Virus record (IMG/VR): IMGVR_UViG_3300045988_017036
DNA length: 45,268 nucleotides
Direction: 5' to 3' (one strand)
Source: a virus
Of the stretch, positions 735 to 40,543 are shown piece after piece (position 1 is the stretch's first letter; each line of letters opens with the position of its first letter). The translations under genes were made by a program, and so were the position numbers. Under the pieces are notes generated by a model that saw only the letters and a program-made list of their open reading frames with translations, was not told the origin of the DNA and did no database searches.

Positions 735-984
735 TATGTAACGAACACTTGAAATTTTTACTTATAAGCCCCATATAGTCTATATAATAGAATACCCTAG
801 GACACTAACCTAGGAATAGACAGTTTTGTATAGATAACCTGTCTGACCTGAATGGAACAAACTATACACAACAATAAATGGATAAACTAAATGTATTCTT
901 TTGAACATAAAGATACAGAACATCCTATGAGAGACATGAGGACTGTCCTTGAGAAATACCGTGATACTGAAGAAGGAGTGACGA

Positions 985-2061
985 ATGAAGGTAATTAAAA
1001 GAGACGGACGAGAAGTAGAATACGATTGGGATAAAGTAGAGTCAGCTATTGGTAAAGCCTATGCTGCTGTAGGACGCAACATTGAGTTTCCTGATCTGAA
1101 TATGTTGTGTTGTCTTAAAGAGCTTGAAGCAGAACTTAAAGATATTTCTGTGTTCAACGAAAAGATAACCGTAGAAGAAATTCAGGATATGGTTGAAAGA
1201 TTCCTGAGTGGACATGATTGCTTTGAGACAGCTAAGGCTTTTATTCTTTATCGTGAACAACACAGAAAGCAACGTACAGCAGTCCAAGTCAAGGAAGCTA
1301 TAGAAGAATACATTGGCCATGCTGACTGGAGAATTAAGGCAAATAGTAATCAGGGGTATTCCCTTGGTGGTATGATTCTGAATACTGCCGGTAAGATCAC
1401 AGCAAACTATTGGCTCAATGAAGTTTATCCTAAAGAGATCGGAGAGAGACACAGAGATGGTTCCTATCATATTCACGACTTGGATATGCTCTCTGGTTAT
1501 TGCTGTGGACACAGCCTTAGGGCATTGCTTGAGGAAGGTTTTAATGGTATTGTAGGTAAGATTTCAAGCAATCCTCCTAAGCATTTCTCTACGGCCTGTG
1601 GTCAGATTGTGAATTTCCTTGGATGTCTTCAGAATGAATGGGCTGGGGCACAAGCATTCTCTAGCTTTGATACCTATATGGCTCCCTTTGTACGACTTGA
1701 TAACATGAGCCTTGAGGACATCAAGAGAGAACTTGAGTCTATGATCTTCAGTCTCAATGTAGGTAGCCGTTGGGGTTCTCAATGTCCCTTTACGAATCTC
1801 ACGTTTGACTGGGTATGCCCTGATGATTTGAAAGACAAGCACCCGATTATTGGTGGTGAAGAACAAGAGTTCACCTATGGTGACTTCCAAAAGGAAATGG
1901 ACATGATTAACAGAGCCTTTATGGAAGTGATGATTGAAGGTGATAAAGATGGTAGAGCCTTTACGTTCCCTATTCCTACCTATAATATCACAGATGCTTT
2001 TGACTGGGAGCATCCTAATTGTGAGTACCTGTTTAAGATGACAGCCAAGTATGGCAACCCT
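985..2061 (+). CDS. nrdD: anaerobic ribonucleoside-triphosphate reductase (class III RNR) NrdD, exon 1 (ATP-cone plus N-terminal part of the catalytic domain)
   Basis: N-terminal ATP-cone-like region (KVIKRDGREVEYDWDKVESAIGKAY), then NrdD-like sequence ending in KYGNP. This continues in frame as YFANY...SMCCRLRLD at 2829 after a 767-nt insertion. P1 pairing: exon AACCCT with intron GGGGTT (2073..2078). Confidence 0.85.
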
Positions 2062-2828
2062 TGACAACACTAGGGGTTGTAAAATCGTGTGAACTCAGGG
2101 AAACTCCCTCTGGGACAATCCTGAGCCAAGCTTTTCGTAAATAACAAAACAACACAAAACATATTTCTATAAGGATAGATTATGAGACCTATTACAAATA
2201 ACTACACTGAAATCGACACCTACTTTGATAAACCTGAATATTCGATACCTGACCTAACTAAAATGTTCGGTATAAGTACACAGAGTATTCATGGGCATTG
2301 GAGGACAAAGTATGGTAGAGACAAACTGAAAGAAAGAAACCGTATTGTCAAGCATTACAAGAATGCTGGAGAGAATCATCCTAACTACGGTAAACGTGGT
2401 GCTGATGCCCCTAAGTATAAAGGTGTTATCAATGCTGACAAGGGTTACTTTATGATTTATAAACCCTCATGGTACACCGGCAGAAAGAATTGTAAGCACG
2501 TCTATCTGCATCACGTGGTTGTCTGTGAGAGACTGGGTATTTCAAAGATACCTCAAGGATGGTGTGTCCATCATTGTGACAAAGATAAATCCAATAATTC
2601 CTTTGAGAATTTAGTGTTGTTGACTCAAGGGGATCATTCAAGGCTACACGATTATTTACGAAAAGAAGGTGCAACGACTATCTCGAAAGAGAGTACACTC
2701 AAGTGGGTGGAAGCGCACGGTAAAGTTTTCAACAAAGAAGACTTTAATGATATAGTCTGTTCTATTAGGTAACTAATAGCTGTGTAAATTCACGGGGGAG
2801 GATTAACGACCCTCCCTGAACATAAAAG
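2062..2828 (+). mobile_element. group I intron 1 in nrdD (767 nt), carrying an HNH homing endonuclease ORF
   Basis: Interrupts the conserved NrdD motif KYG(N/I)PYF. The 5' exon ends in U and the intron ends in G. IGS pairing is present. The 5' core (GGGAAACTCCCTCTGGGACAATCCTGAGC at 2098) is shared with the other four introns. R element CAACGACTAT (~2673) and S element GATATAGTCTG (2749..2760) plus hairpin CTATTAG/CTAATAG lie inside or at the ORF 3' end. Confidence 0.8.
2182..2772 (+). CDS. intron-encoded HNH homing endonuclease
   Basis: HNH motif ...HHCDKDKSNNSFENLVLLTQGDHSRLH. Own RBS (AAGGATAG). Lies wholly inside the nrdD interruption. Confidence 0.8.
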   Translation: MRPITNNYTEIDTYFDKPEYSIPDLTKMFGISTQSIHGHWRTKYGRDKLKERNRIVKHYKNAGENHPNYGKRGADAPKYKGVINADKGYFMIYKPSWYTGRKNCKHVYLHHVVVCERLGISKIPQGWCVHHCDKDKSNNSFENLVLLTQGDHSRLHDYLRKEGATTISKESTLKWVEAHGKVFNKEDFNDIVCSIR

Positions 2829-3740
2829 TATTTTGCTAACTACTGCAATAGTGAACTGAAGCCTACCGATATTCGTTCTATGTGTTGCAGACTTAGACTT
2901 GACCTTAGAGAATTGCTAAAGAGAGGCAATGGGTTGTTCGGTAGTGCAGAGCAAACCGGTAGTATCGGTGTTGTCACAATCAACATGGCTAGACTAGGGT
3001 ACAAGCATAAAGGTGACAAAGAAGGTCTTTTAGTTGAACTACAGGATTTGATGGAGCTTGCTAAAGACAGTCTTGAGATCAAGCGTAAGTTTATCACTAA
3101 GATGATGGGTGAGGGACTGTATCCGTACACTAAGCGTTACCTTGGTACTTTCAGGAACTTCTTTAGTACGATCGGTGTCAATGGTATGAACGAAATGGTT
3201 CGTAACTTTACGGATGACAAAGAGGACATTACGACTGACTTTGGTGAACAATGGTGTCTTGAAGTCTTGAACTACATCCGTAAAAAGATGATTGAATTCC
3301 AAGAAGAGACTGGAAACCTATACAATCTGGAAGCTACTCCTGCTGAAGGTACAACCTATAGATTTGCTAAAGAAGACTTGAAGAGATACCCTGATATTCT
3401 TCAGGCTGGCACTAAAGAGAATCCTTACTATACGAATAGCTCTCAGTTGCCTGTAGGATTCACGGATGACCCCTTTGAGGCTCTTCTGAGACAAGAAGAG
3501 ATGCAATGTATGTACACCGGTGGCACAGTATTGCACCTGTATATTGGTGAACAGATCAGCTCTTGGGAATCCTGTAGAAACCTTGTAAGAAAGGCAGTTA
3601 CTAACTTTAAGTTGCCTTATATTTCTGTTACACCTACATTCTCCATTTGTCCTAAACATGGATACCTTGCAGGTAAACATGACCATTGTCCTTTATGTGA
3701 TAAAGAAATCATTGAAAAATATAAAGCTAAGGAGTGTTGT
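2829..3740 (+). CDS. nrdD: NrdD exon 2 (catalytic core through the Zn-ribbon; the 3' boundary is approximate and the reading frame runs to a stop codon at 3744..3746)
   Basis: In-frame continuation YFANYCNSELKPTDIRSMCCRLRLD... upstream of the ORF-track start at 2880. C-terminal segment CPKHG..HCPLC is a Zn-ribbon-like region. The glycyl-radical motif is missing from this exon and is found downstream at 4551. Confidence 0.7.
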
Positions 3741-4550
3741 AAATGATAAGTGAAGTAGATATTGAACAAAAGATTCTTAAAGAACACGCTGAAGAAAGAC
3801 AGCCTTGTGAAGTATGGTCTCGTTAACCTACTAGCGTGACCTTTTAAAAACGATGCCTAAACGGGGAAACTCTCACTGAGACAATCCCGTGCTAAACACT
3901 ATATGAGAAACCCTTGGAGGTTGATATATGATGATTGAAATCTGGAAAGACATCCCTGAATGGGAAGGACTCTATCAAGTATCTAATATGGGTAGAGTCA
4001 AGAATACTAAAAGAAACAAAGTCAAAGTCCTTGATATGAACAATGCAGGTTATCTCAGAGTCCAGCTTTGTGATAACACCAGGCGCAAGAAATACTTTAT
4101 CCATCGTCTGGTAGCCCATGCGTTTGTTGATGGTTACTTCGATGGCGCTCAGATAAATCACATTGACATGGATAGGACTAACAACTGTGCTGACAATCTT
4201 GAATGGGTAACTCCTAGTGAAAACCAAAAGAAAGCTGTGGCTATCAAAGGGTTGCACAAAGGACACTTTAAAGACGTACCTTACAAGATCACTTTTAGTA
4301 ATGGAGCTACAATCTACTTCGATAATATGCCCCTTGTCGCTAGGTCTGTTGGTCTGTCCAAGAGTCTTCTCTATTACAGACTCAACGGTAAAGACAAGGT
4401 TTATCTTAAAGAAGTCGATGGGTATCTTTCCAAGTGTAATGCCTAGAGACTATCCGCACAGCGGAGTAAGTAGCATAATGCTATTGAAACGGTATCCATA
4501 GATGATATAGTCCGAACTCATAGGCGACTATGAGATTAACATAATTGGTG
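3741..4550 (+). mobile_element. group I intron 2 in nrdD (about 0.8 kb; the 5' boundary is uncertain), carrying a NUMOD4/HNH_3 endonuclease ORF
   Basis: 5' core element GGGGAAACTCTCACTGAGACAATCCCGTGC (3863) is homologous to intron 1. R-like element AGAGACTATCCG (~4449), S element GATATAGTCCGA (4504..4515) and hairpin CTCATAG/CTATGAG. The downstream frame encodes the NrdD glycyl-radical tail. The junction 3740|4551 satisfies the U / omega-G rules and reproduces the E. coli NrdD spacing of 15 residues between the last Cys and the radical Gly. P1 is only weak (GTGACC at 3836). Confidence 0.55.
3928..4446 (+). CDS. intron-encoded HNH homing endonuclease (NUMOD4 plus HNH_3 type)
   Basis: WKDIPEWEGLYQVSNMGRVKN (NUMOD4-like) and HRLVAHAFV...INHIDMDRTNNCADNLEWVTPSENQKKA (HNH_3). 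Strong RBS GGAGG. Confidence 0.85.
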   Translation: MMIEIWKDIPEWEGLYQVSNMGRVKNTKRNKVKVLDMNNAGYLRVQLCDNTRRKKYFIHRLVAHAFVDGYFDGAQINHIDMDRTNNCADNLEWVTPSENQKKAVAIKGLHKGHFKDVPYKITFSNGATIYFDNMPLVARSVGLSKSLLYYRLNGKDKVYLKEVDGYLSKCNA

Positions 4551-4655
4551 ATGGGTTACCTTAGACCTACCTCCGGCTACAATAAAGGTAAGATAGGAGA
4601 GTTTAATGAACGAAAGTTTTTTAAAGAACCAAAAGCTAAAGATATACAGTGCTGA
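4551..4655 (+). CDS. nrdD: NrdD exon 3 (34-codon micro-exon with the glycyl-radical motif)
   Basis: Translates to MGYLRPTSGYNKGKIGEFNERKFFKEPKAKDIQC*. Compare E. coli NrdD ...RVCGYLGSPDARPFNAGKQEEVKRR. Same absolute frame as exon 2. Overlaps the start of the next gene in another frame. Confidence 0.5.
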   Translation: MGYLRPTSGYNKGKIGEFNERKFFKEPKAKDIQC

Positions 4656-4848
4656 TTGGTGTATGAAGTGTAGGAGCCTCAAGAACACTTTGGATAGACT
4701 TGGAGTATCCTATGAAGTTATAGATGTATCTAAGTTATCAGAAGAAGAATATGCCTCAATTCGTGAGCTTCCTACTATTGAACTCAATAATAATAGACTT
4801 TCTGGTGAAATACATTTGAAAGCCCTAAAAGAATTCTTGGGTTTGTAA
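4606..4848 (+). CDS. glutaredoxin / NrdH-like small redoxin
   Basis: 80 aa with a thioredoxin-fold CxxC (YSADWCMKCRSL). Located next to nrdD. Confidence 0.6.
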   Translation: MNESFLKNQKLKIYSADWCMKCRSLKNTLDRLGVSYEVIDVSKLSEEEYASIRELPTIELNNNRLSGEIHLKALKEFLGL

Positions 4849-4851
4849 AAT

Positions 4852-5130
4852 ATGCTGGTATTAGATGACGAGGATGTCAAGAAGATTGCTGATGGTGTAT
4901 TGCAGTCTTCTCCTCCTGCTGTGGTCTCCTCATGTACTCTTCTTGGCTTCCCGTTATCTGATTGGGTTTATATAGCAACAATCATTTATACATTTGTTGG
5001 AATCCTTAGTATCATAAAGAGATATTGGGTTGACCCCTATCTTAGAGCTAAAAGAAGACTAAGAGAAATAGAAGCAAGGATTAAAAGAGAACATGAGCAA
5101 CAAGAAAAAGAAAACCACACAAGAACTTGA
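4852..5130 (+). CDS. type II holin (T7 gp17.5-like)
   Basis: A single central TM segment (WVYIATIIYTFVGILSII) with a charged C-terminal tail. Resembles T7 gp17.5 and lies immediately upstream of terS, as in T7. Confidence 0.6.
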   Translation: MLVLDDEDVKKIADGVLQSSPPAVVSSCTLLGFPLSDWVYIATIIYTFVGILSIIKRYWVDPYLRAKRRLREIEARIKREHEQQEKENHTRT

Positions 5131-5365
5131 AGAACTCCTAGGGTTAATCCAAGAGAAACTTTATGATGCTATGAGTAACGACTTGGATGATCCTCAAAAG
5201 CGTTCTCCACAGCTCTACAACGCTATTATTAAGGAGCTAGAACGTAATGGCATAGATTGTGTCCTTAAAGCAGGAGACGATGAAGGAAATGCTTTTAATA
5301 GCCTTCTGTTGAAGGTACAGAATACCTATAGTGAAGCAGGATATGACAATCAAGCAATCAACTAA
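5093..5365 (+). CDS. terminase small subunit (T7 gp18-like)
   Basis: 90 aa. The motif RSPQLYNAI is shared with T7 gp18. It overlaps both the holin and the large terminase gene, as in T7. Confidence 0.7.
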   Translation: MSNKKKKTTQELEELLGLIQEKLYDAMSNDLDDPQKRSPQLYNAIIKELERNGIDCVLKAGDDEGNAFNSLLLKVQNTYSEAGYDNQAIN

Positions 5366-17365: not shown

Positions 17366-18196
17366 TTGGTTAACCATACGATTAATGACACCACGACTAT
17401 TCAGGGTCAGTCTATCGCTACGGTGATTGCAGATACGGTTTATAAAGGTTCTCGTATCACGACTCTTGAATTGGTCTATCCTCGATACATTCATAGTGAG
17501 TTTATGACTCACCGAATGTTTAGCCGTAATGCTTCTTCTAGCCGTGCTATTCCTATCGAAAAGATAGTGAATGAGGTACTTACTGACCCTGTAGGTTTCG
17601 ACTATGTAGGATTCAATCAGTCTGGCATGGTGGCTGCTGAAGAACTCCCTGAAGATTTGAAAGAAGATTTTCTTGCTGAGTGGAAACTTTGGGGTATGCA
17701 GACGGCTCTTAAAGTCAAACTGTGGGCTAAGAAGTACAACATCCATAAGCAAACCTTGAATCGAGCTTTGGAACCTTGGAGTCGAATTAAGGTACTTGTA
17801 ACTGCAACTGAGTGGGACAATTTCTTTAAGCTTCGACTGGCACCGGATGCACAACCTGAGATTCAGAATTTAGCTAAGGCTATGAAGTCAGCTATGAATG
17901 CTTCTACACCGGTAGAGTCTAAGATGCACTTGCCCTATGTTGATCTGACAGATCGTGAGCCTGAGTATACTGACATGTATCACTCTGTAGCTCGTTGTGC
18001 CCGTGTGTCGTACAACAATAACGGGGGTACTACGAGTACGCTTGAAGAAGACAAGAAGCTGTTTGAACGTCTTCAAAATAATGGGCATTGGTCTCCCTTT
18101 GAGCATACTGCTGAGTTCGTAGGTGACAATGATATGCACGCTAATTTCTACAACTGGCGGTCTCTTCGAAAGGTCTATGAACTAGCCGGAGTATAA
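17366..18196 (+). CDS. thyX: flavin-dependent thymidylate synthase ThyX
   Basis: ThyX signature motif RHRxxSxNxxSxR is present (THRMFSRNASSSRAIP). TTG start with RBS GGAG. Confidence 0.85.
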   Translation: MVNHTINDTTTIQGQSIATVIADTVYKGSRITTLELVYPRYIHSEFMTHRMFSRNASSSRAIPIEKIVNEVLTDPVGFDYVGFNQSGMVAAEELPEDLKEDFLAEWKLWGMQTALKVKLWAKKYNIHKQTLNRALEPWSRIKVLVTATEWDNFFKLRLAPDAQPEIQNLAKAMKSAMNASTPVESKMHLPYVDLTDREPEYTDMYHSVARCARVSYNNNGGTTSTLEEDKKLFERLQNNGHWSPFEHTAEFVGDNDMHANFYNWRSLRKVYELAGV

Positions 18197-18204
18197 TAAC
18201 TGAT

Positions 18205-18278
18205 TGGGGTATAGCTCAATGGCAGAGCACTTGGCTTTGACCCAAGGGATGTAGGTTCAATTCCTGCTGCCCCTGCCA
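18205..18278 (+). tRNA. tRNA-Gln (anticodon UUG)
   Basis: Cloverleaf. D arm GCTC-AATGGCA-GAGC. Anticodon arm CTTGG-CTTTGAC-CCAAG. T arm GTAGG-TTCAATT-CCTGC. Unpaired 1:72 position, G73 and CCA, as in bacterial tRNA-Gln. Confidence 0.75.
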
Positions 18279-20567: not shown

Positions 20568-22346
20568 ATGCTGAACGACAGTGAAAAACTGATTGATTAC
20601 ACAACAAAGAAATACTTAATCACAGACATTGAGACGAATGGTTTGTTAGATACTGTCTCAAAGTTCTGGTGTGCTTGGTGCTATGACTATGAGCGTAAGT
20701 CATACATTGGATTCAAAGACATTGATCTTTATGTTGCCTATCTGGAAGATGCTGTAGATAAAGGTTATCGTCTGGTCTATCACAATGGAATTAAATATGA
20801 CATACCTGCATTAAAGAAGATCATGGGTAGAGACTTGAAGTTCAACCCAAGGGAATGTGTCGTTGATACTCTTGTCTTAGCTAGGCTCATCTACACACAG
20901 ATTAAGGACATTGATATTGGCTTGATTAAGTCCGGCAGACTCCCTAAGAAACTCTATGGCTCTCACTCATTGAAAGCTTGGGGTTATCGTCTGGGAATCT
21001 TGAAGGGAACTTACGGTGAACAAGAAGAAGCTTGGAATCAATTCTCAGAAGAGATGTACGAATACTGTAAGCAGGACGTTGCAGTTACTCTAGAACTCTT
21101 CTCTTTGTTGTTTAAGAAGCAATATCCTGTATCCTCCATTGAGCTTGAGCATAGCATTGCTTGGGTGATGGCTAAACAGGAACGCAACGGGTTTGTCTTT
21201 GACTATGATAAAGCGGTTACTCTTTATGCTACTCTTAGTGCTAAACGTAGTGAGATTGAAGATAAACTTGTGAAGACTTTTGGCTCATGGGAGAAATACA
21301 TTGGAGACAAAATCTACAAAAGAGACAACGCTAAACGAGGGATTGTTGCTGGCGTACCTTACCCACAGTATGAAACGGTGGTTTTCAACCCTAGCAGCCG
21401 TGAGCATATTGCTAAAGTCCTTATGGAAAGGGGGTGGACTCCGACAGTATTCACAGAAACAGGAAAACCTAAAGTAGACGAAGAGACTCTACAGTCTGCT
21501 ATGGATATACCGGAAACAAAGCTAATCCTTGAATACTTGTTGATACAGAAGCGTATCTCTCAGTTAGCTGAGGGTGATTTTGCTTGGCTGAAGATGGAGA
21601 AGAAAGATGGTGATGGTATCCATAGAATTCACGGTAGCGTTAATCCTAACGGGACTGTTACTGGTCGTGCATCTCATAGCTTCCCTAATGTTGCACAAGT
21701 TCCTGCGGGACATTCAGAATATGGAAAGGAATGCAGGGAGCTTTTTAGAGTACCTGAAGGATGGTACGAATGTGGCATTGACGCTTGTGGACTTGAGTTG
21801 CGTTGCCTTGCTCATTTCCTTTATCCATATGATAAGGGTGAGTACGGTGATATTATCTTAAATGGTGACATCCATACGCATAACCAACAGCTTGCTGGGT
21901 TACCTACTCGTGACATGGCGAAGACATTTTGTTATGGACTTTTGTACGGAGCTGGCAATGAGAAGATCGGTTCAATCATTGGTGGTAGTGCTGCTGAAGG
22001 TAAAGCTTTGAAAGACAAGTTTATGAAGGGACTACCGGCATACAAGAAGTTAACTAAAGCTATCCACAATGCCTTGGTAGAAGATGAGAGGTTTATAGGT
22101 GGTAAAAACATTGTTAAATGGCGTAAGAGATTCCATCGTGATAATCCTAGTCTTGATATTACTCATAGTCTCATTGGTCTTGATGGTCGCATTCTTTATT
22201 GTCGCTCTCCCCATAGCGCTCTTAATCTACTGCTTCAGTCCGCAGGTGCGCTCGTCTGTAAGCAGTGGGTGGTCTTCTGGGAAGAAGGAATGAGAGCTAG
22301 AGGTTTCGATCATCACAACGACTTTAGGTTGCAAGCTTGGGTGCAT
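20568..22346 (+). CDS. DNA polymerase (T7 gp5 family), exon 1
   Basis: Exonuclease and polymerase motifs collinear with T7 gp5 (ITDIETNGL, KQERNGF, RIHGSVNPNGTVTGRASHSFPNVAQ, LELRCLAHF, KTFCYGLLYGAG, SPHSALNLLLQSAGAL). The frame breaks after ...QAWVH. Confidence 0.9.
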
Positions 22347-22973
22347 AACCTTTCACATTGTGCACGTTAAACTAGGTTAATTCGGTGAAGCCCCACGAGG
22401 GTAATACCGAGCTAAACATGGAGGAAACTATGCGTGGTAAACCGTTAATCTTTACTACCACTAAAGACGGTTGCATAGTTTCTACCTCACACAGACTCAA
22501 TCAAGATGGGTATCTCAGAGTGAGAGACCCTAGTTATAGAGGCTCTGGTCGTGCTCCACTTGTCATGTATCATCGTTACGTTTGGGAATACTTGAAAGGT
22601 TCTATTCCTGAATGTAAGGAGATACATCATAAGTGTCACAATCGAGCCTGCTGTAACATAGATCATCTGGAATTGATTGATATTGTCGAACATAAGTGTG
22701 AACATAATCACACTAGGTATAAGAATAGAAAAGATGAAGCTTATGCCTATTGGTTAGACAATAAAGATATTTCCGGTACTGATCTAGGTGAGCTGTTCGG
22801 AGTCTCTTTTTCTACTGGTTGTAGGTGGATAAGAGAATGGAAGTGTAGAGACTAGGAATATTCCGTAGGGGCTATGGGTGAAACTCCCATAGTCTCGAAA
22901 TGCCTAGCACAGCTAATACCAATAGGCTGTGAAGATATAGTCCGACACCCGTAGTAATATGGGAAACAGTAGG
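22347..22973 (+). mobile_element. group I intron in the DNA polymerase gene (627 nt), carrying an HNH endonuclease
   Basis: The exon ends TGGGTGCAT, with a perfect 6-bp P1 to GTGCAC (22361..22366). R-like element AGAGACTAGG (~22845). S element GATATAGTCCGA (22934..22945) plus hairpin CCCGTA/TATGGG. Omega G at 22973. The spliced product reads ...AWVH|DEIQVACRTKEIA, matching T7 AWVHDEIQVGCRTEEIA. Confidence 0.8.
22418..22855 (+). CDS. intron-encoded HNH homing endonuclease
   Basis: HHKCHNRACCNIDHLEL HNH motif. ATG at 22418, within track ORF 22385..22855. Confidence 0.8.
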   Translation: MEETMRGKPLIFTTTKDGCIVSTSHRLNQDGYLRVRDPSYRGSGRAPLVMYHRYVWEYLKGSIPECKEIHHKCHNRACCNIDHLELIDIVEHKCEHNHTRYKNRKDEAYAYWLDNKDISGTDLGELFGVSFSTGCRWIREWKCRD

Positions 22974-27956: not shown

Positions 27957-28121
27957 ATGGCAGCTCTTAATGATAATTCTATTTCCAATCCTGGTCAACA
28001 ACTGAGTACTGGTGATCGCCGTGCGTTGTTCCTGAAGATTTTTGCAGGTGAAGTTCTGACGGCTTTTGCTCGTACCACGGTTATGATGGACAAGCATATT
28101 GTCCGAACCATTAACTACGGT
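27957..28121 (+). CDS. major capsid protein (T7 gp10-like), exon 1 (55 aa)
   Basis: MAALNDN...RRALFLKIFAGEVLTAFARTTVMMDKHIVRTINYG matches T7 gp10A residues ~20-75 (KLALFLKVFGGEVLTAFARTSV...HMVRSISSG). Confidence 0.85.
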
Positions 28122-28762
28122 AATTGATTTGCTGTAGTAAAACTCTTTTAATTGCTGGGAACTCCTATAGATAGGACAATCAGCAGCTAAGACTAACCGA
28201 AAGGTAGTAAAGTTCAACGACTAGTTTTTATAACGTAGGTATCAAGTGATACCGAAATGGAGAGATATATTATTATGAGCGAAAGCACCGAGATGGGCTT
28301 TAAGGAGTGCAAACTCTGCAAACAGGTTAAACCTTTGTCAGAGTTCTACTATAGAAAAGATAGCAAAGACTATCGTGCTGAGTGCAAGCAATGCAGGAAA
28401 AACTATGAACGTCTTAAAAAGACTGGATGGTCTCCTGAAGCTTATGAGTATGCTTGGTATCATCAGAATGGTAAGTGTGCTATATGTGGTTGTGAGTTAG
28501 GCTCTAGTAGATATACTAAACCTGCCGCAGATCACGATCATAAGACGGGTAAACTTAGAGGTATTCTCTGTACTCAATGCAATACAGCTTTAGGTCTTAT
28601 GAAAGATTCTCCTTATAGGCTTGAGTCCGCGATTCGTTATTTAGAAGAACACGGAAATAATATATAAGATATAGTCTGATCTCATAGGTAACTATGAGCC
28701 GTCTAGGGTGGGAACCTAGATGGAGCTACGGGGTAACGCCTGTAGTGAAACATGAGGCAACG
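28122..28762 (+). mobile_element. group I intron in the major capsid gene (641 nt), carrying an EndoVII-type HNH endonuclease
   Basis: The exon ends ACTACGGT, with P1 to GCTGTA (28131..28136). Core carries GGGAACTCC...GGACAATCAGCAGC, classic R element GTTCAACGACTAG (~28214) and S element GATATAGTCTGA (28668..28679) plus hairpin CTCATAG/CTATGAG. Omega G at 28762. The spliced product reads TINYG|KSASFPVMGRT, matching T7 SISSGKSAQFPVLGRT. Confidence 0.85.
28257..28667 (+). CDS. intron-encoded HNH endonuclease (His-Me finger with Zn-binding Cys pairs)
   Basis: CKLC...CKQC...CAIC...DHDHKTGKLRGILCTQCNTALG. The start is probably ATG at 28275 after GGAGAG. Confidence 0.85.
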   Translation: MERYIIMSESTEMGFKECKLCKQVKPLSEFYYRKDSKDYRAECKQCRKNYERLKKTGWSPEAYEYAWYHQNGKCAICGCELGSSRYTKPAADHDHKTGKLRGILCTQCNTALGLMKDSPYRLESAIRYLEEHGNNI

Positions 28763-29572
28763 AAATCCGCCTCGTTCCCTGTTATGGGTCGTACTCATGC
28801 TAAGTACCTTGAACCCGGCAATAGCTTGGACGATCAACGTAAGAAGATGGAACACACCGAGAAGGTCATCGAGATCGATGGTCTTCTTACGGCTGACTGC
28901 TTGATTACTGATATTGACGAAGCAATGAACCACTATGATGTGCGTTCTGAATACTCTCGTCAACTTGGTGAAGCTCTTGCTCAGGCTGCTGACTGTGCTG
29001 TTATCAATGAACTTGCTAATCTGGCAGCTAAGAAGACTGCTGGTATGCAAGAAAATATTCCTGCAAACTCTACTCTTAAAAACCCCGGTACGGGTAAGGC
29101 TTTTGAATTTGTTACCGGTATGGACGAAGCTCAATCCGCAGCTTATGGCAATAAGTTGCTTGAAGGTCTGATTGCTGCTCGTGCTGCATTTACCCGTAAC
29201 TATGTGCCTCAGGCTGATCGTTACTTCTTGACGACTCCTGAAGGTTACTCTGCTATTCTCCGTGCGTTGATGCCTGATGCGGCTAACTATGCGGCTCTCT
29301 TTGACCCGTCTAGCGGTCGCTTGATGAATGTTGCTGGCTTCCAAATTATCGAAGTTCCGCACTTCATTAACGATGGTGTTGACAGCAAGCACACCCTCAA
29401 GGCACAACTTACGACTGCTGTGTTGCAAGGTATTGTCTTCCATCGTTCCGCTGTGGGTACTGTGAAGCTCCGTGATCTTGCTATGGAACAAGCACGTAGA
29501 GCTGAATATCAGGCAGATCAAATCATTGCCAAGTACGCGATAAACAAAACCTGTCGCGTTAATCTTTTCTAA
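28763..29572 (+). CDS. major capsid protein, exon 2
   Basis: KSASFPVMGRTHAKYLEPGNSLDDQRK...HRSAVGTVKLRDLAMEQARRAEYQADQIIAKYA is collinear with T7 gp10A. The spliced protein would be about 324 aa. Confidence 0.9.
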   Translation, partial: KSASFPVMGRTHAKYLEPGNSLDDQRKKMEHTEKVIEIDGLLTADCLITDIDEAMNHYDVRSEYSRQLGEALAQAADCAVINELANLAAKKTAGMQENIPANSTLKNPGTGKAFEFVTGMDEAQSAAYGNKLLEGLIAARAAFTRNYVPQADRYFLTTPEGYSAILRALMPDAANYAALFDPSSGRLMNVAGFQIIEVPHFINDGVDSKHTLKAQLTTAVLQGIVFHRSAVGTVKLRDLAMEQARRAEYQADQIIAKYAINKTCRVNLF

Positions 29573-29641: not shown

Positions 29642-30403
29642 GTGAGTAAGTATAACGAAACTCTTAATAAATATCTTGCAGGGTTTATTGATGCAGATGG
29701 AACCCTTGCATTTCACTTTAATAAAACTGTAGATGGATATTTTAGAATAGGTTTACAGTTTGGTATTACACAGATAGACAACAGAGGCAGAGGCTTTAAG
29801 CTTCTGGAATTCCTTAAAGAATCCTATTGTGTAGGAAGTCTGTCTGATGTGCCAAGTAAAAAACAAAAGTATTGGAAGGTAGCAAATAAAGATGAACTCG
29901 AAAAGTTCTTACCTCATGTAATCAAACACATGGTTATTAAAGGTAAGCATTTTCAAAGAATGCTAGAGAAACGAAGAGAACTAGCAGGAGTTAATCTTAC
30001 GCAAGAACAAGTAGATGCCTTGAGACAATTTGCTAAAGAATCAAGGAAAGATACCGGTGCTATCCGATACAAAAAGAATGCTAGCCCTGCATGGTTAGCT
30101 GGATATATAGATGGTGATGGATACCTAAGACATTCTGATAAAGAACATTGGCTTAAAATCCATGTACAAACTTCTGATGTTGTTGCTGTAGAATTAATAC
30201 AGAACACTTATGGTGGTAAGATATACCCGACAACAAAAGAAAACATAAAAGAGTTTCGATTAAACTTTGGAGCATCGTTCTACGGAACTGCTAACAAAGT
30301 ATTGAAGGCTATCATTCCGCATCTAAGAATAAAAAGACATGATGCTGAAATGATTCTTCATTGGCACAAGCAACGACTAAGTGAAAAGAACTCTACGGAG
30401 TAA
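29642..30403 (+). CDS. free-standing LAGLIDADG homing endonuclease (double-motif)
   Basis: Two LAGLIDADG motifs (LAGFIDADG and LAGYIDGDG). GTG start after RBS TAGGAGA. Lies between the capsid gene and the tail genes. Confidence 0.85.
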   Translation: MSKYNETLNKYLAGFIDADGTLAFHFNKTVDGYFRIGLQFGITQIDNRGRGFKLLEFLKESYCVGSLSDVPSKKQKYWKVANKDELEKFLPHVIKHMVIKGKHFQRMLEKRRELAGVNLTQEQVDALRQFAKESRKDTGAIRYKKNASPAWLAGYIDGDGYLRHSDKEHWLKIHVQTSDVVAVELIQNTYGGKIYPTTKENIKEFRLNFGASFYGTANKVLKAIIPHLRIKRHDAEMILHWHKQRLSEKNSTE

Positions 30404-34833: not shown

Positions 34834-37029
34834 ATGCCTACATATCAAAATAGTGCGGGTAATACCGGCATAGCTAGACAGTATGGCGAGTGGAGATACT
34901 TTAATTCAAGTCTCCAAAGATTGGGTGAATACAAGGGGGCTAGACTCAATGTAAGAGTTTCCCCCTCAATGGCTCAAGCTAAAACAAACTATTGGCAAGC
35001 ATTGACTGGGCTTCTAGGTACTGTAGGAAAAACCTTTGAAGCATACAGAGATTATTCTTATCAACTGGCAGATAAGTATGTAGACAAGCATGGCATTGAT
35101 TCCTACAACAAGGCTATGGTTGACAATCAGGTTCCTATTCAGAATAACCCCTTGGCGATGGAAAGAATTAAGGAACGCCAAGGCCAAATTCTTTCAGGTA
35201 TTGTTAATAGTGACTTCAACAGTAGAATTGAAAATGGGGAGTTTGTAGGTAAATCTCCGTTTGCTGTTGAAGCGGCTATGATTGAGACTAAGTCACAGGC
35301 TCCTGAAGAACTGTCTAAGTATTTACCATTTGATATAGCTAATGACTATGCTTTCAATGAAGGTTACTGGGGAGGCTCACAAAAGCAAAGAGACCAAGCA
35401 AACCTAAAGAATGTTTCAGTCACTAGTGATAGAATCAAGCAACAAGCTCTCATAAATATATCTGGTGTCATCAACGGTATGGTTGACCAAGGATATTCTA
35501 TTGAAGATGTTTTTGCCAAGATAAAGGAATTTGAAGAGACAGAGGGTATTTACTTTGATCCTTCAGAGAAAACCAAACTGTATTCTTCGATTTTTGAAAG
35601 GGGTTCTTTGAGAGCTGATGGCAAAGAGTTCCTTGACTACATTGCTAACCAAAAGGTTCCCGGTACTACTGGCACTTTTAGAGATTTGTATGGAGATGAG
35701 TTCTTTCAAACTCTAAAGGTAAAAGCCGACAATGCTAAACTTGTAGAGAATGCGTCAAACTACTATAATTTCCTTGATACTCTGTGGGATTTAACAAACA
35801 AACCTGATGGAAACATAAAGCTGACTCAGATGTTAGATCAGGAGATTAGGAATAATGGTGGCATAAAGACTAAGAGAACTGAAGCAATTTATGATTCTAT
35901 AGAGAAATGGAAGAGCAACCAAAAGACTCTTCTTAAATCAGCAGAATCAGAAAACAAAAGAACATTAAATCTTGCGTCTTATATTGATTATTATAGAGAT
36001 AAAGCTTTAGGAAATACTTCTGAAACTGAAGAATCTGCTATATTCAGACTTAAAGGGGATGCTAACACTAGAAAACTTGCACAACAATTTGTTGTAGGTG
36101 AAGTATTAAACTCTGGTGATACTGTCAGAATTAACACTATGCTTAATAATATAGTTGCTAATGGCGCCCCTTCTGAACTTAGGACATTTACGGCTGAACA
36201 GTTTAAGAATGCCTTTACAAAAACAACTTCTGCTGTAGAAAAGTTTGTCAATAAGGGTGTTCTACCAACAAGTGCAGATCCGGATATGGTTCCTTTTACT
36301 GATGCTAAAGGAAATAATCTAGGGTATGTTCCTAAGAATCTGGCTAGTTTTGTTGAAGTCTATAACATGAATCCTTCTGCTGTAGCTGATCTTGTTAGTA
36401 ATGACAAGGGATTCAAAGATGATATGGATTTGATTAATATGGGGATGGATATGGGATATAACCCCATAGAAATCTTAGGACGTAAGCAAGCATTTATAGC
36501 CAATAATGAATCTATGAAGGATGCCACCGGTACTCCTGAGCAACAGTTTAATACACTTGTCAGAATGTCTGAAATTAGAGGCTTTGAAGAAGACAGAATA
36601 CCTAAAGCGCAGTTTGCTAGAGTAAACGCAGCACTTGATGGTATTGTTTTAGCTAGAGCGCATAAGCTGAGTCTTGTGACAAATGAAAGAATGGGTAAGT
36701 GTGTCTCTGCCGCTAAAGAACAAGTTGAAGCAGAACTTGCAGGTATTAATACCTTCGTTGTTCCCCGTAGTCTTCTTTTAAAAGATTTCGCAGGAATAAC
36801 TGTAGATTCAGACACCGTTGTAGATATAGCAAATGAAGTCTTTGTAGATATTGCTAAGACAGCACCGGGGGTTAAACTTCCTAAGGATTATGATGCTTCT
36901 TATTATGATGCAGCAAACAATACAATTCATGTGATTGATATTAGTGGTAATCCTAGAGGTGATATACCTATTAATGTCTTCACCAAGAAGATTAGAGAAG
37001 CTTTTGATAAAAGAAATATTGAGAGATAA
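34834..37029 (+). CDS. internal virion (core) protein (gp15-like)
   Basis: 731 aa. Position and size match T7 gp15. Confidence 0.65.
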   Translation: MPTYQNSAGNTGIARQYGEWRYFNSSLQRLGEYKGARLNVRVSPSMAQAKTNYWQALTGLLGTVGKTFEAYRDYSYQLADKYVDKHGIDSYNKAMVDNQVPIQNNPLAMERIKERQGQILSGIVNSDFNSRIENGEFVGKSPFAVEAAMIETKSQAPEELSKYLPFDIANDYAFNEGYWGGSQKQRDQANLKNVSVTSDRIKQQALINISGVINGMVDQGYSIEDVFAKIKEFEETEGIYFDPSEKTKLYSSIFERGSLRADGKEFLDYIANQKVPGTTGTFRDLYGDEFFQTLKVKADNAKLVENASNYYNFLDTLWDLTNKPDGNIKLTQMLDQEIRNNGGIKTKRTEAIYDSIEKWKSNQKTLLKSAESENKRTLNLASYIDYYRDKALGNTSETEESAIFRLKGDANTRKLAQQFVVGEVLNSGDTVRINTMLNNIVANGAPSELRTFTAEQFKNAFTKTTSAVEKFVNKGVLPTSADPDMVPFTDAKGNNLGYVPKNLASFVEVYNMNPSAVADLVSNDKGFKDDMDLINMGMDMGYNPIEILGRKQAFIANNESMKDATGTPEQQFNTLVRMSEIRGFEEDRIPKAQFARVNAALDGIVLARAHKLSLVTNERMGKCVSAAKEQVEAELAGINTFVVPRSLLLKDFAGITVDSDTVVDIANEVFVDIAKTAPGVKLPKDYDASYYDAANNTIHVIDISGNPRGDIPINVFTKKIREAFDKRNIER

Positions 37030-37031
37030 CA

Positions 37032-40000
37032 ATGCCTGATAATAAACCTATTGTTGCTACTACAGGAAGTATGCAACTATTTAGTGGTAATTCCACTTCT
37101 GTATCCTCAGCAACAAATAGTGGTATTCCTATATTGGGCTTGGATACAATCAATGAACAAGAACCTAGAGTAAACAATGAGTTACCTCAAGGAACACCTA
37201 ACGATATAGAATATAAACCTTATGGTTGGGATGAGCTTGGGAGACTTACTCAGGATTCCTATTCTATTTCTCCATTCGGTATGTTCTATAGACAAGCTAA
37301 GAATGGTACCGGTGACTTCTGGGAGAGTTACAAACCTTCCATTGCAGAACTTGATAAAATCTACAAACAGGTAGGTACTGATGAAGATGTCCTTGACGTT
37401 GTATTACGTGGTGCTGATACCTACGAAGAAGTAGAGAAAAACATAGCTCTCTATAAGCAGAACCTAGAGATTGAACGAAGGATTGCTAATAGTCCTTGGT
37501 ACTGGCAATTATATAGTGGTATCATAGGGGCTTTTGGTAATCCTGTTGATCTCGGTACGATGGCTTTGACTGCTGTAGTTCCTCCTGCCGGTGCTGTTTT
37601 AGGTGCATCTGCTAAGGCAGCTAAAGCTATAGATATAGGTGGTCGTATAGCTGCTAATGTTGTTTCTGGTGTAGCCGCTAATCAGGTTGCAGGTGAAGTG
37701 AGTGGTCTTGAAACAAATGCGTGGAGAGACGTAGCGGCTATCACTACTTTGTCTGGTGCTATGGAAGTAGCAGGGTATGCCGCAGCTAAACTTAAAGCCT
37801 CTAAGATTAAGGGTGTTCTGGCACATGACAAATATGTGACTAATGGTGAGAAACCTAAAGCTATCGGTGACTTTGCACCTGAGATTGAAAAAGTAACAAA
37901 GTCTAAGGGTTTTACTACGAAACTCAATGACATGAGAGAGCAACTAACTTCTGGTCTTCCTTCTGTCGAAGTAAAGCAAAGACTTCTTGATTATGATAAA
38001 GAAGGTCTTGATAGTGTCAGCTACCTTATAAGAAACACCACTCATTGGGAACAAGGTGCTAGACACGTAAGGACTGAATCAGATCAATCTAAGATTTATC
38101 TTAATGATCCTAAGGAAACTCTTCCTGTAGACGTTATGCCTTATGATAGAAGTGATAGGCTTGGTACTACTCGCTTTGGTTCCGGTAAGGCTACTCTTTA
38201 TGAAGAGACTGCAAAGCTTAAAGTGGATGATGATAAATACCTGAGAAGCTTTAGAAATGACATAGGTATTGTCTCTAAGATGTATGGAGACGAAGATGTA
38301 AGAAACTATTTGTTTCTAAAGGGTGAAGGCTATGATATTCCTCCTGAGTTAGCTAAACTGGATAAAGACCCAAGAATGCAGAGAGCTATTAAGAACTATA
38401 TAGCTTCCTACAAAAAGAAGGGGGAACAACTTACTCAGGTTGATGCTATATCTGATATTTGGGGATACTTGAATTATATTCCAATGAGAATAGACAGAAG
38501 AGCATACACAGCATATAGTAAGCAATTCGCTAATACAGAGCTTGCTAGAAAGAATCTTATGCGTTATCTGATGGAAGGTGTGTACAATAGCCCTAAGCAT
38601 CTTGAATGGTTCAAAGAAAGATTCGAACAAGAGCTTAAAGAAAGAGTAGCTAAAGAAAAAGAAGAAGCTGCTGCTAGAGGAATTGAGTACAAAGAAAAGA
38701 AGTTGTCTCAAGAAGACTATGATGCAGAACTGAATGACTTTATTGCTGGTAAAGCTGAAGCGGCATCTAAAGGTTATTCAGATCAGGGTGTCTCTTTAGA
38801 AAAACACTCTGATGATTATAGTGATTTCAGTACAGGGTTTTCTTTTACAAAGGAGAGAATGCCTTGGAATGCAGCATACGTTGATCGAAATGGTTTCTCT
38901 TTGAATAGTATTAGAGCTGATCCTGTTGATACTATAGAGAGATACAACAGACGTGCTAATGGTTTGATTGCTACTAAGCGTGTGTTTGGGAAGACCTTTG
39001 ATGAACTTGATGCTGATATTGTGTCTTCAGCTAATGAGCTGTTTGATAAGCATCATAAGGATACCAAGATAAGACAACAATACCTTAGAGATATGAGGGC
39101 TATGATTAGAAGAGCCTACGGCATGAATGTCTCAGAGAGAAAATCCTATGATGCTGTAGATGCTTTTATGGCTCTCTTCAAAAATGGAATGTTCTCTACT
39201 GTAGGTACTTTTATGGGTGCTTTGAACTCTGGTGAGATCGGTATGCTTGTTAATTCCTATGGTGCAGGCAGTCTTATTAGAAGCATACCGGGTGTTGGAA
39301 ATATCTACTCTAAGTTGGCTAAGTCTGGACACTTAGACAAAGCTAGTATTGAGTCTATCAAGAAGCATATAGTTGGATATGAGTTCAATGAAAGATTGAA
39401 TCTTAGGGCGGCTATCAAAGAAGCCACAGACAACTTTGAAGACATGAATCCTTATCTAGCTAAGGCTGTTGGGGCTTCTAGATTCATGGCTGAACATTCT
39501 CCTGCTAGTTTTGTGATGCGTGGTTTTCAAGGACACATTAATGATGTGATTACGGATGCTGTAACGTCTGAACTCATAACAAGAGCTTTAAGCACTAAAG
39601 GTGGTATCAAGGGGATGTTTAAAGACCCTAAAGCATTTGAACGATTAGGCATCACTAAGGACGACATTAAATATCTTAATAGAGTCTTGAGACGCTATAC
39701 TACTACCAACAAGGACGGTTCATATTCCCTGAAAGAAGGCTTTGAATCTCTGGCAGATGATGATATGTTCAGAGACATCTTTGGTAGACTCCATAAGTAT
39801 GCTTTTGAAGAATGCTTGCAGAGAAGAAATCCTGATGACATCTTTACGTGGCAGTTGGGAGACAAGAGTATAATGCTTGATCTGGCTATGCAGTTTAAGA
39901 CGTTTGCTATACAGTCTTACAACAAGAGATTCGTAAAGATGCTTAACCGTATTGAGGATGGGGATAGTTTGGCAATGTTTAACTTTGCTGTGACTACTAC

Positions 40001-40538
40001 TGCATTGTCTGGTACTGTCAATATGCTTGTCTCTTATACTCGTTCTCTTGGTATGGAAGAAGAGGCACGAAATGACTATCTTGATAGAACTATAGGATTC
40101 CATGATTTCAAAGACCTAGATAATCCTGAAGTTCTCGCTCAGGCATTGTTCTATAATATGGTTAACCGTAATCCTATTATAGCTGCCTTCGCACTCGGAT
40201 GGAATACTTTCGGTATTGGTACCGGTGGTAAAACAACAGCCTCGATTACAGACGACTATGCTGATAGTGCAACAATAGGTAACTTTAATGTTGGCAAGCA
40301 AATTACCGATATGATTCCTGCTACTAGACTTATAGATTCAACAGCGGACTTTGGTATTGGTCTATACAATTCAGGTATTATAGCTATGGATGATGAAGAA
40401 GATACCTATGAGAATAGATCAAAGACTTCCAAACAATTACTTAAAGGTCTTAATCTCTTACCTCAGTTGCCCTATTTGTCTCCTGTATTAAGAGACCACG
40501 TAAAAGACAGCCTCGAAGAATATAAATATGGATATTAA
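37032..40538 (+). CDS. internal virion (core) protein (gp16-like)
   Basis: 1168 aa. Position and size match T7 gp16. Confidence 0.7.
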   Translation: MPDNKPIVATTGSMQLFSGNSTSVSSATNSGIPILGLDTINEQEPRVNNELPQGTPNDIEYKPYGWDELGRLTQDSYSISPFGMFYRQAKNGTGDFWESYKPSIAELDKIYKQVGTDEDVLDVVLRGADTYEEVEKNIALYKQNLEIERRIANSPWYWQLYSGIIGAFGNPVDLGTMALTAVVPPAGAVLGASAKAAKAIDIGGRIAANVVSGVAANQVAGEVSGLETNAWRDVAAITTLSGAMEVAGYAAAKLKASKIKGVLAHDKYVTNGEKPKAIGDFAPEIEKVTKSKGFTTKLNDMREQLTSGLPSVEVKQRLLDYDKEGLDSVSYLIRNTTHWEQGARHVRTESDQSKIYLNDPKETLPVDVMPYDRSDRLGTTRFGSGKATLYEETAKLKVDDDKYLRSFRNDIGIVSKMYGDEDVRNYLFLKGEGYDIPPELAKLDKDPRMQRAIKNYIASYKKKGEQLTQVDAISDIWGYLNYIPMRIDRRAYTAYSKQFANTELARKNLMRYLMEGVYNSPKHLEWFKERFEQELKERVAKEKEEAAARGIEYKEKKLSQEDYDAELNDFIAGKAEAASKGYSDQGVSLEKHSDDYSDFSTGFSFTKERMPWNAAYVDRNGFSLNSIRADPVDTIERYNRRANGLIATKRVFGKTFDELDADIVSSANELFDKHHKDTKIRQQYLRDMRAMIRRAYGMNVSERKSYDAVDAFMALFKNGMFSTVGTFMGALNSGEIGMLVNSYGAGSLIRSIPGVGNIYSKLAKSGHLDKASIESIKKHIVGYEFNERLNLRAAIKEATDNFEDMNPYLAKAVGASRFMAEHSPASFVMRGFQGHINDVITDAVTSELITRALSTKGGIKGMFKDPKAFERLGITKDDIKYLNRVLRRYTTTNKDGSYSLKEGFESLADDDMFRDIFGRLHKYAFEECLQRRNPDDIFTWQLGDKSIMLDLAMQFKTFAIQSYNKRFVKMLNRIEDGDSLAMFNFAVTTTALSGTVNMLVSYTRSLGMEEEARNDYLDRTIGFHDFKDLDNPEVLAQALFYNMVNRNPIIAAFALGWNTFGIGTGGKTTASITDDYADSATIGNFNVGKQITDMIPATRLIDSTADFGIGLYNSGIIAMDDEEDTYENRSKTSKQLLKGLNLLPQLPYLSPVLRDHVKDSLEEYKYGY

Positions 40539-40543
40539 ACAAC

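Follow-up and report, generated by a model that had tools for sequence, protein, structure and literature searches.

Where does a class III ribonucleotide reductase (RNR) carry its radical glycine when the gene for its large chain stops short of the glycyl-radical loop? The question is raised by the nrdD locus of a T7-like phage with a genome of ~45 kb, IMG/VR virus record IMGVR_UViG_3300045988_017036, whose whole stretch of 45,268 nucleotides (nt) is called the window here. A first reading of this DNA (hereafter the original prediction) had noted that the long nrdD open reading frame (ORF) ends at TGA 3744-3746 right after a cysteine cluster and without a glycyl-radical motif, that this ORF is followed by an HNH gene and elements of a group I core, and that a glycyl-radical segment is encoded further downstream. 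It proposed that a second intron of nrdD, at 3741-4550, is removed by joining 3740 to 4551, giving a single NrdD of 697 amino acids (aa; ...AKECC/MGYLRP...). The translation agrees with the position of the stop, the downstream elements were recovered (P7, P7' and P9 among them), and a group I intron does lie in the locus, although it interrupts a separate small gene and not the long ORF. We conclude that the locus very probably encodes a two-chain class III RNR, and that a td-like mobile intron at 3824-4547 (intron 2) is inserted in a 62-codon gene for the glycyl-radical loop.

The splice junction was fixed by comparison with relatives. Homologues of nrdD exon 2 led to sister phages from human-gut metagenomes, and a search with the predicted 62-aa product retrieved an uninterrupted 62-aa ORF (P0121), 97% identical and present on many contigs. 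Among these contigs is L005, which has neither intron: its 664-aa NrdD (3010-5004) is followed by a 62-aa gene (5001-5189), the two overlapping in ATGA. Alignment of the window with L005 by blastn gave three collinear blocks in which window position 3823 equals reference position 2182 and window 4548 equals reference 2183. The flanking bases permit only the junction 3823/4548, and joining these positions reproduces the intron-less alleles exactly; the same comparison sets the junction of the upstream intron 1 at 2061/2829. The spliced-junction sequence, CCTTGTGAAGTATGGTCTCGT/GTGATGGGTTACCTTAGACCTACCTCC, carries single-nucleotide polymorphisms specific to the window, and the intron-less target in window form reads GGTCTCGT/GTGATGGG, with G4547 immediately preceding GTGATGGG. 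Intron 2 thus follows codon 27 of the small gene and precedes codon 28, two codons ahead of the codon for the radical glycine, Gly30. Because the intron-less alleles join 3823 to 4548, the junction 3740/4551 is wrong, by 83 nt on the 5' side and 3 nt on the 3' side, and the 81 nt that it assigned to the intron (3743-3823) are exon.

These 81 nt are coding. They are contiguous with VMGY... in the intron-less alleles and are read in a frame that differs from that of nrdD. Unspliced, the 27-codon ORF spans 3743-3826 and reads MISEVDIEQKILKEHAEERQPCEVWSR followed by a stop codon, its ATG overlapping the nrdD TGA as ATGA. Exon 1 has 25 variable columns among 12 phage alleles, 13 of them third positions of codons in the small-ORF frame, and EVWSR is kept through synonymous switches (TCT, AGT or TCG for Ser; CGT, CGC or AGG for Arg). 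The Shine-Dalgarno sequence AAGGAG, 8 nt upstream of ATG 3743 in the window, is also found upstream of the non-overlapping small ORF in two intron-bearing relatives, L003 and L011. On the far side of the intron, the 36-codon ORF 4545-4655 reads LVMGYLRPTSGYNKGKIGEFNERKFFKEPKAKDIQC, that is, (V)MGYLRPTSGYNKGKIGEFNERK. Taken alone, it aligns with positions 539-562 of the 562 of Pfam NRDD at 18.1 bits (E = 0.0011; cut-off 26.2).

Splicing would restore a 189-nt gene (3743-3823 plus 4548-4655) for a separate 62-aa protein, MISEVDIEQKILKEHAEERQPCEVWSR/VMGYLRPTSGYNKGK..., in which ...EVWSR from exon 1 and VMGYLRP... from exon 2 together make the canonical NrdD glycine loop (...ERQPCEVWSRVMGYLRP..YNKGK.GEFNERK). 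This product passes the NRDD cut-off (33.1 bits, positions 530-562) and matches no other Pfam family. It aligns with the extreme C-terminus of NCBIfam NF006126 (649-682 of 684) and with the C-terminal end of TIGR02487. In the PDB, phmmer found no match to the 62-aa protein, and a profile search gave weak matches (E ~0.5-1) on the glycine loops of Thermotoga maritima and Prevotella copri NrdD. The predicted product, a 62-aa ORF with RVMGY, has the make-up of a small stand-alone glycyl-radical protein.

The large chain has the complementary deficit. Once spliced (985-2061 plus 2829-3746), it comprises 664 aa with the ATP-cone, the barrel and a C/H/C/C zinc ribbon, and it ends in ...CPLCDKEIIEKYKAKECCK, the stop coming directly after CPKH...CPLC and before the glycyl-radical loop. 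The corresponding intron-less 664-aa ORF of L005 matches NF006126 at 1088 bits (cut-off 548; positions 4-658 of 684), so that a class III barrel with ATP-cone is found well above the family cut-off. The R-[VI]-x-G-Y motif that belongs near the C-terminus of the same polypeptide is absent from it, no RxxGY being present in the large chain; RVMGY is on the separate 62-aa product. In the alignment with T. maritima NrdD, the break falls between the zinc ribbon, which stays on the large chain, and the glycine loop. With the glycine loop missing from the large chain, the small chain would be indispensable and not a spare.

The same division is found in relatives, in arrangements that keep the two ORFs apart. 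L003 and L011 have ...KEN-TAA at the end of the large ORF, then a single G and the small-ORF ATG; the relative frame of the small ORF is +1 in these two phages and -1 in the window and L005. In the bacterial locus L004, on a high-GC contig, the large chain ends after CPICDEE..., and ~100 nt with a ribosome-binding site separate it from a 71-aa homologue (MVNRNELTSTGTIVDGVELSNEERQPCEVWTRVMGYYRPVAFYNTGKKGEFHERVEF...). The C-terminus was visible in ~99 of the 120 best homologues of nrdD exon 2, and ~98 of these stop 15-40 residues after CPxCD without a glycine motif; the lone fused exception is P0076 (...CPTCGSECEVWTRVMGY...). Bacterial genomes were scanned with one genome per species, at least 598 species genomes being confirmed among the 600 stretches listed, and the best 80 loci were examined: 74 are split, one is fused (L036) and five have no large chain in the fetched stretch. 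The split bacterial loci use all three relative frames, with spacings from -4 to ~+300 nt and with start codons of their own.

Among facultative and denitrifying Proteobacteria the split form is widespread (Cupriavidus, Paracoccus, Bradyrhizobium, Ralstonia, Thauera, Sutterella), and the phage large chain is ~70% identical to the bacterial ones. RefSeq lists the 58-69-aa ORFs as separate proteins, under the name "anaerobic ribonucleoside-triphosphate reductase", and on pHG1 of Cupriavidus necator H16 (L097, locus 780-3856) the order is a 676-aa reductase, a 66-aa "nrdD" and nrdG, with the locus tags H16_RS32680, H16_RS32675 and H16_RS32670. A profile search of 1.84 billion cluster representatives returned 1329 matches at E <= 1e-10, and the best 150 of the 1329 are all 54-128 aa long. 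An exact look-up of the bacterial P0068 returned no record. An NrdD core together with a separately encoded glycyl-radical peptide, which the original prediction had itself named as the arrangement that would speak against it, is what these comparative data point to.

Two further features of the bacterial loci were recorded. Many of the small chains have cysteine-rich tails (...GCCA, ...KCC, ...CGCSK) and many of the large chains end in ...CC (L097, L012-L091), a feature reminiscent of the redox-shuttle cysteines at the C-termini of class I and class II RNRs. In L036 (Massilia sp. H-1), the large and small ORFs form one continuous reading frame that takes in the stretch corresponding to the spacer of related loci, by natural re-fusion or by assembly error.

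With its boundaries set by the intron-less alleles, intron 2 could be laid out as a group I ribozyme by comparison with the experimentally established T4 td intron, for which we used a sequence 100% identical to T4 records (L092). We take the td intron, which encodes I-TevI, to be a member of subgroup IA2 of Michel and Westhof. Intron 2 has homologues of its J3/4-P4-P5-P6, P7, P7.1, P7.2, P3', J8/7-P7' and P9 segments. As in td, where the ORF is that of I-TevI, the P6a loop holds an ORF whose final codons (AAUGCCUAA/G) supply the 3' strand of P6. The differences from td lie in the endonuclease, which is of the HNH/NUMOD4 type and not GIY-YIG, in the lack of P2, P8 and P9.1/P9.2, and in the host gene, a 189-nt glycyl-radical gene instead of thymidylate synthase. 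The hallmarks of a group I intron that were found comprise a U.G wobble in P1 at the splice site (U3823.G3834), an omega-G whose use would restore the ORF, a P3-P6/P7 core with the P3/P7 pseudoknot, and P7.1/P7.2, which are typical of subgroup IA. A minimum-free-energy fold of the 205-nt core recovered all the helices outside the pseudoknot (P1, P3, P4, P6, P7.1, P7.2 and P9). The coordinates are collected in Table 1.

Table 1. Features of the nrdD locus in the window
Feature	Coordinates	Strand	Description and basis
nrdD large-chain exon 1	985..2061	+	359 codons; ATP-cone and N-terminal half of catalytic barrel; Pfam ATP-cone, NRDD 2-238
Intron 1	2062..2828	+	td-like group I, 767 nt; HNH ORF 2182-2772 runs into ribozyme core
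nrdD large-chain exon 2	2829..3746	+	Pfam NRDD 262-535; TGA 3744-3746
Shine-Dalgarno AAGGAG of small gene	3729..3734	+	upstream of ATG 3743; read from sequence
Small-gene exon 1	3743..3823	+	27 codons, MISEVDIEQKILKEHAEERQPCEVWSR
Intron 2	3824..4547	+	td-like group I, 724 nt; ORF-less core 205 nt; boundaries from intron-less alleles
P1	3816-3823 / 3834-3841	+	exon GGUCUCGU with guide GCGUGACC; 7/8 pairs; 5' splice site after U3823
P3	3852-3857 / 4491-4496	+	td homology, fold
P4	3861-3866 / 3885-3890	+	td homology, fold
P5	3871-3874 / 3878-3881	+	td homology
P6/P6a	3891-3899 / 4434-4442	+	td homology, fold
Shine-Dalgarno GGAGG of endonuclease ORF	3916-3920	+	upstream of 3928
HNH/NUMOD4 homing endonuclease ORF	3928..4446	+	172 aa, in P6a loop; Pfam NUMOD4 2.8e-15, HNH_3 8.8e-10
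P7	4448-4453 / 4507-4512	+	td homology
P7.1	4454-4464	+	hairpin
P7.2	4469-4485	+	hairpin
P9	4517-4534	+	td homology, fold
omega-G	4547	+	last intron base
Small-gene exon 2	4548..4655	+	35 codons and TGA 4653-4655, VMGYLRPTSGYNKGKIGEFNERKFFKEPKAKDIQC; radical glycine codon GGT 4554-4556
Glutaredoxin-like gene	4606..4848	+	80 aa; Pfam Glutaredoxin 2.1e-8; NCBIfam mycoredoxin, YruB and NrdH-like matches

Seven copies of intron 2 were obtained (the window, L003, L011 and L093-L096), each of them inserted at this one site of the small gene; three of them came from a scan of metagenomes with a pattern of the core, and the same scan of viral contigs gave no match. Across the six copies that can be aligned in full, P1 is invariant, and 99.7% of the pair cells are standard, compared with 26-44% when the partners are slid. 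Variation in the helices amounts to one compensatory change in P7.1 (C-G to U-A), five one-sided changes that keep pairing and one unpaired cell in P7.2. Because these copies share 95% identity and one of them served to derive the structure, the pairing statistics are support rather than proof.

Several observations weigh against our interpretation. Intron 2 lacks P8, a helix that group I introns normally all have, and P9.1/P9.2. The td intron has a 20-nt stem-loop, CAACTTGCTTTAACAAGTTG, as its P8 hairpin, and in all seven copies only 4 nt (CATA or CAGA) stand at this site between P3' and J8/7; the loss of P8 and P9.1/P9.2 makes self-splicing competence uncertain. No convincing P10 pairing was seen in intron 2, and the similarity of the copies leaves covariation support thin. 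Rfam RF00028 gives intron 2 only 24.9 bits (E = 0.0015), compared with a gathering score of 50, and the permissive alignment partly ran spuriously into the ORF. At the gathering threshold Rfam found neither of the two introns of the nrdD locus, only an intron at 28075-28698; intron 1 scores 36.1 and 21.8 bits. Since the T4 td intron itself falls short in the same kind of search, with 40.3 bits, scores below the threshold are normal for phage introns that carry ORFs, and the Rfam test is a weak one for them. Pfam detected no radical-SAM or NrdG domain in two shorter ORFs and in 28 window ORFs of at least 110 aa, which are all the long + strand ORFs except the three largest of the structural region (34834-43453). 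No demonstration of two-chain assembly was found in the literature. What we infer is that the intron splices in vivo, that ribosomes start on the small ORF at its own Shine-Dalgarno sequence, that the two chains dock, and that a host NrdG installs the radical.

How do other readings of the locus compare? The single 697-aa NrdD has several points in its favour: U3740 and G4550 fit the U/omega-G rule, the downstream exon shares its absolute frame with nrdD, the distance from the last cysteine to the radical glycine (15 residues) is similar to that in E. coli, and the joined C-terminus scores 103 bits against Pfam NRDD. We nonetheless give it almost no credence. The intron-less alleles retain all of 3741-3823, a stretch that holds a conserved coding ORF, and a 3740/4551 splice would lose the invariant E-R-x-x-C-E-V-W-S-R. 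The guide reported as GTGACC at 3836 is real, forming part of GCGTGACC at 3834-3841, but it pairs at 7 of 8 positions with 3816-3823 (GGTCTCGT) and not with 3733-3740. Simply placing the two chains end to end gives a higher NRDD score (108.7 bits) than the joined C-terminus does. The shared frame and the residue spacing are coincidences. Intron-less relatives keep 664-aa and 62-aa ORFs. A single NrdD might also be made after splicing by frameshifting or readthrough at the ATGA overlap. The 4-nt overlap of the ORFs in the window and the existence of single-chain homologues (P0076, L036) would suit such a fusion, which we nevertheless regard as very improbable: TGTTGTAAATGA offers no slippery heptamer, the frame of the small ORF relative to the large one changes from -1 (window, L005) to +1 (L003, L011), the bacterial homologues occur in three frames with variable spacers and their own starts, and a Shine-Dalgarno sequence precedes the small ORF. 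The variation in frames and spacers, together with the lack of a slippery site, thus argues against a programmed frameshift. An intein was rejected on account of in-frame stops and the absence of intein motifs.

Two other readings accept the small gene and doubt the intron. Intron 2 could be a decayed, splicing-defective ribozyme, leaving the small gene of the phage dead and the large chain, if used, dependent on a small protein borrowed from the host. The missing P8 and P9.1/P9.2 and the low Rfam score speak for such decay, and likely hosts may share the split system, which Sutterella and other Burkholderiales have. Against it, both exons are undamaged in seven independent copies, which retain every invariant residue and an intact 172-aa endonuclease ORF; the helices are maintained save for the one P7.2 cell, with a compensatory change in P7.1, and the window copy has diverged from the others without a disabling change. 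We consider decay improbable, though the most credible of the alternatives. The insertion could instead be an endonuclease cassette with no functional intron, the halves of the small protein being translated separately as 27 aa and, from ATG 4551, 34 aa. ATG 4551 is in frame, and the nrdA of Aeromonas phage Aeh1 is split by a free-standing endonuclease and yet functional (PMC3653736). This too has very little probability in our view, because a complete td-like scaffold surrounds the ORF with P1 and omega-G exactly at the junction, no Shine-Dalgarno sequence precedes ATG 4551, and separate halves would break the protein three residues before the radical glycine, inside the invariant RVMGY.

The two-chain reading with a mobile intron also fits the distribution of the insertions. 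L005 has neither intron; L006, L007, L009 and L010 have intron 1 only; L011 has intron 2 only; and the window and L003 have both. The intron-less target alleles differ synonymously from the others (TGG-AGT-CGT versus TGG-TCT-CGT), which is the pattern expected around a homing site; the AGT-CGT variants may be resistant to the endonuclease. The endonuclease of intron 2 is unremarkable within its family, and annotated HNH homing endonucleases from Enterococcus phages are ~40% identical to it. It combines the HNH motif with a NUMOD module and is intron-encoded, and alleles with and without the intron both occur. Sequence comparison directly shows where the exons end, that two separate ORFs are conserved, that the ribozyme scaffold has homology to td, and that the insertions are polymorphic.

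A plausible course of events can be proposed on this basis. Guanosine-initiated self-splicing would remove intron 2, using the P1 pairing of GGUCUCGU with GCGUGACC, the U.G pair at 3823 and omega-G 4547, and ligation of the exons would restore the 189-nt ORF. The 62-aa protein would then presumably dock into the barrel of the 664-aa chain, and a host activase would place the radical on the glycine of the small chain. The HNH endonuclease, for its part, would carry intron 2 into intron-less alleles. That the activase would be the host's follows from the absence of nrdG among the scanned phage ORFs; no NrdG activase was found encoded near the phage locus, whereas the bacterial loci have nrdG directly downstream. 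The presumed reliance on a host NrdG suggests a host with the same split NrdD, for example a gut Burkholderiales such as Sutterella. Downstream, the glutaredoxin-like gene begins within the small gene, and the two share 50 nt. The original prediction had stated this overlap in another frame, and the arrangement is common to all the related phage loci. Together with the CC motif of the finger loop (MCCRL), this neighbour suggests that the reductase may depend on thiols rather than on formate.

Intron 1 belongs to the same family of elements. Its P1 pairs CAACCCU with GGGGUUG, its omega-G is G2828, and it aligns with the 3' core of T4 td with P8 and P9.2 included; unlike intron 2, it keeps P8 and P9.1/P9.2. 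A megablast of the locus against 50,697 phage records found no relative, only short matches in the intron 1 core. Within the HNH ORF of this intron, window 2667-2720 is a 54-nt stretch that recurs with 100% identity in T7-like phages of Acinetobacter, Pectobacterium and Klebsiella, where it carries the annotation "HNH homing endonuclease"; it corresponds to the td-like core (P7-P7.2-P3') inside the 3' end of the endonuclease ORF, which points to one intron family spread across distant podophages.

Another insertion was seen close to the intron 2 site. In addition to intron 1, L001 and L002 carry a different insertion of 795 nt with a 222-aa LAGLIDADG ORF, 9 nt further downstream and right after the glycine codon. 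It lies at 6954-7748 in L001, and the L002 copy differs by 1 nt. The junction inferred for L001 (...ATGGGC/...GATTG/TAT) has C and not U at -1, opposite A in ACCCAT, and the insertion shows a P7'-like ATAGTC, an AATC-GAAA-GATT hairpin and a terminal G. Rfam gave no match to it at E <= 1.

Elsewhere in the window, a third group I intron (28075-28698) is the sole one above the Rfam threshold (62.5 bits). It contains an ORF of the Endonuclease_7 family and lies directly upstream of an ORF for a Gp10A-like major capsid protein; the ORFs here are 28257-28667, 28694-29572 and 29642-30403, and a LAGLIDADG ORF follows 3' of the capsid ORF. The capsid gene thus seems to have one or two interruptions. 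An ORF for a family A DNA polymerase (20568-22370) is followed directly by an HNH_3 endonuclease ORF (22385-22855), and the polymerase gene is probably split by another intron or endonuclease, as in other T7-like phages. Two tRNA matches, at 15797-15886 and 17223-17341, have insertions of 18 nt and 46 nt after the anticodon stem, the one with 46 nt scoring only 37.6 bits; a third match is at 18205-18275, and a ThyX-like ORF (17366-18196) lies between the tRNA matches. The two tRNAs with insertions could be intron-containing or have an unusual long arm.

Group I introns with homing endonucleases in T4 nrdD, nrdB and td and in Twort nrdE are classical, and the T4 nrdD intron interrupts a single-chain NrdD that has its own glycine loop. 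The T4 nrdD (sunY), Twort nrdE and SPbeta nrdE/F introns resemble intron 2 in being mobile group I introns with homing endonucleases beside highly conserved RNR codons (PMC3653736), and they differ from it in that the gene interrupted here is a separate 62-codon ORF. The original prediction had granted a two-intron nrdD precedent only in principle, an understatement given that Dwivedi et al. 2013 (PMC3653736) place nrdD first among the RNR genes of phages in how often it is split.

Several known systems parallel the two-chain enzyme. The two-gene nrdD of C. necator H16 pHG1 and other bacteria is split at the same point and shares ERQPCE(V/I)W(S/T)RVMGY..P...(F/Y)N.GK.GE..ER with the phage; the bacterial loci have no intron, usually a spacer and an adjacent nrdG, whereas the phage has two introns. 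GrcA/YfiD of E. coli and Y06I of T4 are likewise small stand-alone glycyl-radical-loop proteins that complement a large catalytic chain. They are, however, spare parts of the pyruvate formate-lyase (PFL) type, made for an enzyme with its own radical domain, whereas the phage small protein is of the NrdD type: it shows no homology to the PFL C-terminal domain (Gly_radical, PF01228), and its partner has no radical domain of its own. According to a 2026 review, spare-part proteins are known only for formate lyases, and the existence of others is open (PMC13450708). In the split class II enzyme NrdJa plus NrdJb of Pseudomonas aeruginosa and Thermus phage YS40, a C-terminal module of the catalytic subunit is also encoded by an adjacent gene (PMC5704485, PMC9669993); that RNR is of another class, and its separated module is a cysteine-rich zinc-finger reductant shuttle and not a radical loop.

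Full-text literature searches, which did not cover Siedow et al. 1999 on the C. necator locus, returned no description of a class III RNR with the glycine loop as a separate gene product, nor any of P8-less group I introns. Because RefSeq annotates the ORF and that paper was not covered, we do not claim the two-chain architecture as proven new; it is present in databases and apparently uncharacterised. The element in the window is a variation on a familiar theme, a mobile intron like td whose core is atypical in lacking P8 and whose host gene, coding for the smallest subunit of a split NrdD, is a new one.

A more speculative role for the small chain is conceivable. The 62-aa protein might be a dissociable, replaceable "radical cartridge", charged by NrdG and plugged into the 664-aa chain, with the phage copy gated by the P8-less ribozyme; we put this forward tentatively and consider it rather doubtful. 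In this reading the phage has captured the split form that is widespread among the Proteobacteria named above. If it held, only a 7-kDa peptide would have to be remade after cleavage by O2 instead of a 75-kDa enzyme, and the system would be a built-in class III RNR counterpart of the GrcA/PFL repair.

For the phage, the gene model is corrected to the junctions 2061/2829 and 3823/4548, with two chains as products and not one. A mobile intron of 724 nt in a 189-nt gene, close to the radical glycine, is an extreme case of homing elements targeting the most conserved codons, and if the P8-less core splices it would be of interest to ribozyme structural biologists. The locus also brings to light a class III RNR architecture that has gone largely unnoticed and that hundreds of bacterial species have, the genetically studied pHG1 locus of C. 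necator among them; with such a split system, it would be possible to test directly the installation of the radical in trans and the exchange of subunits.

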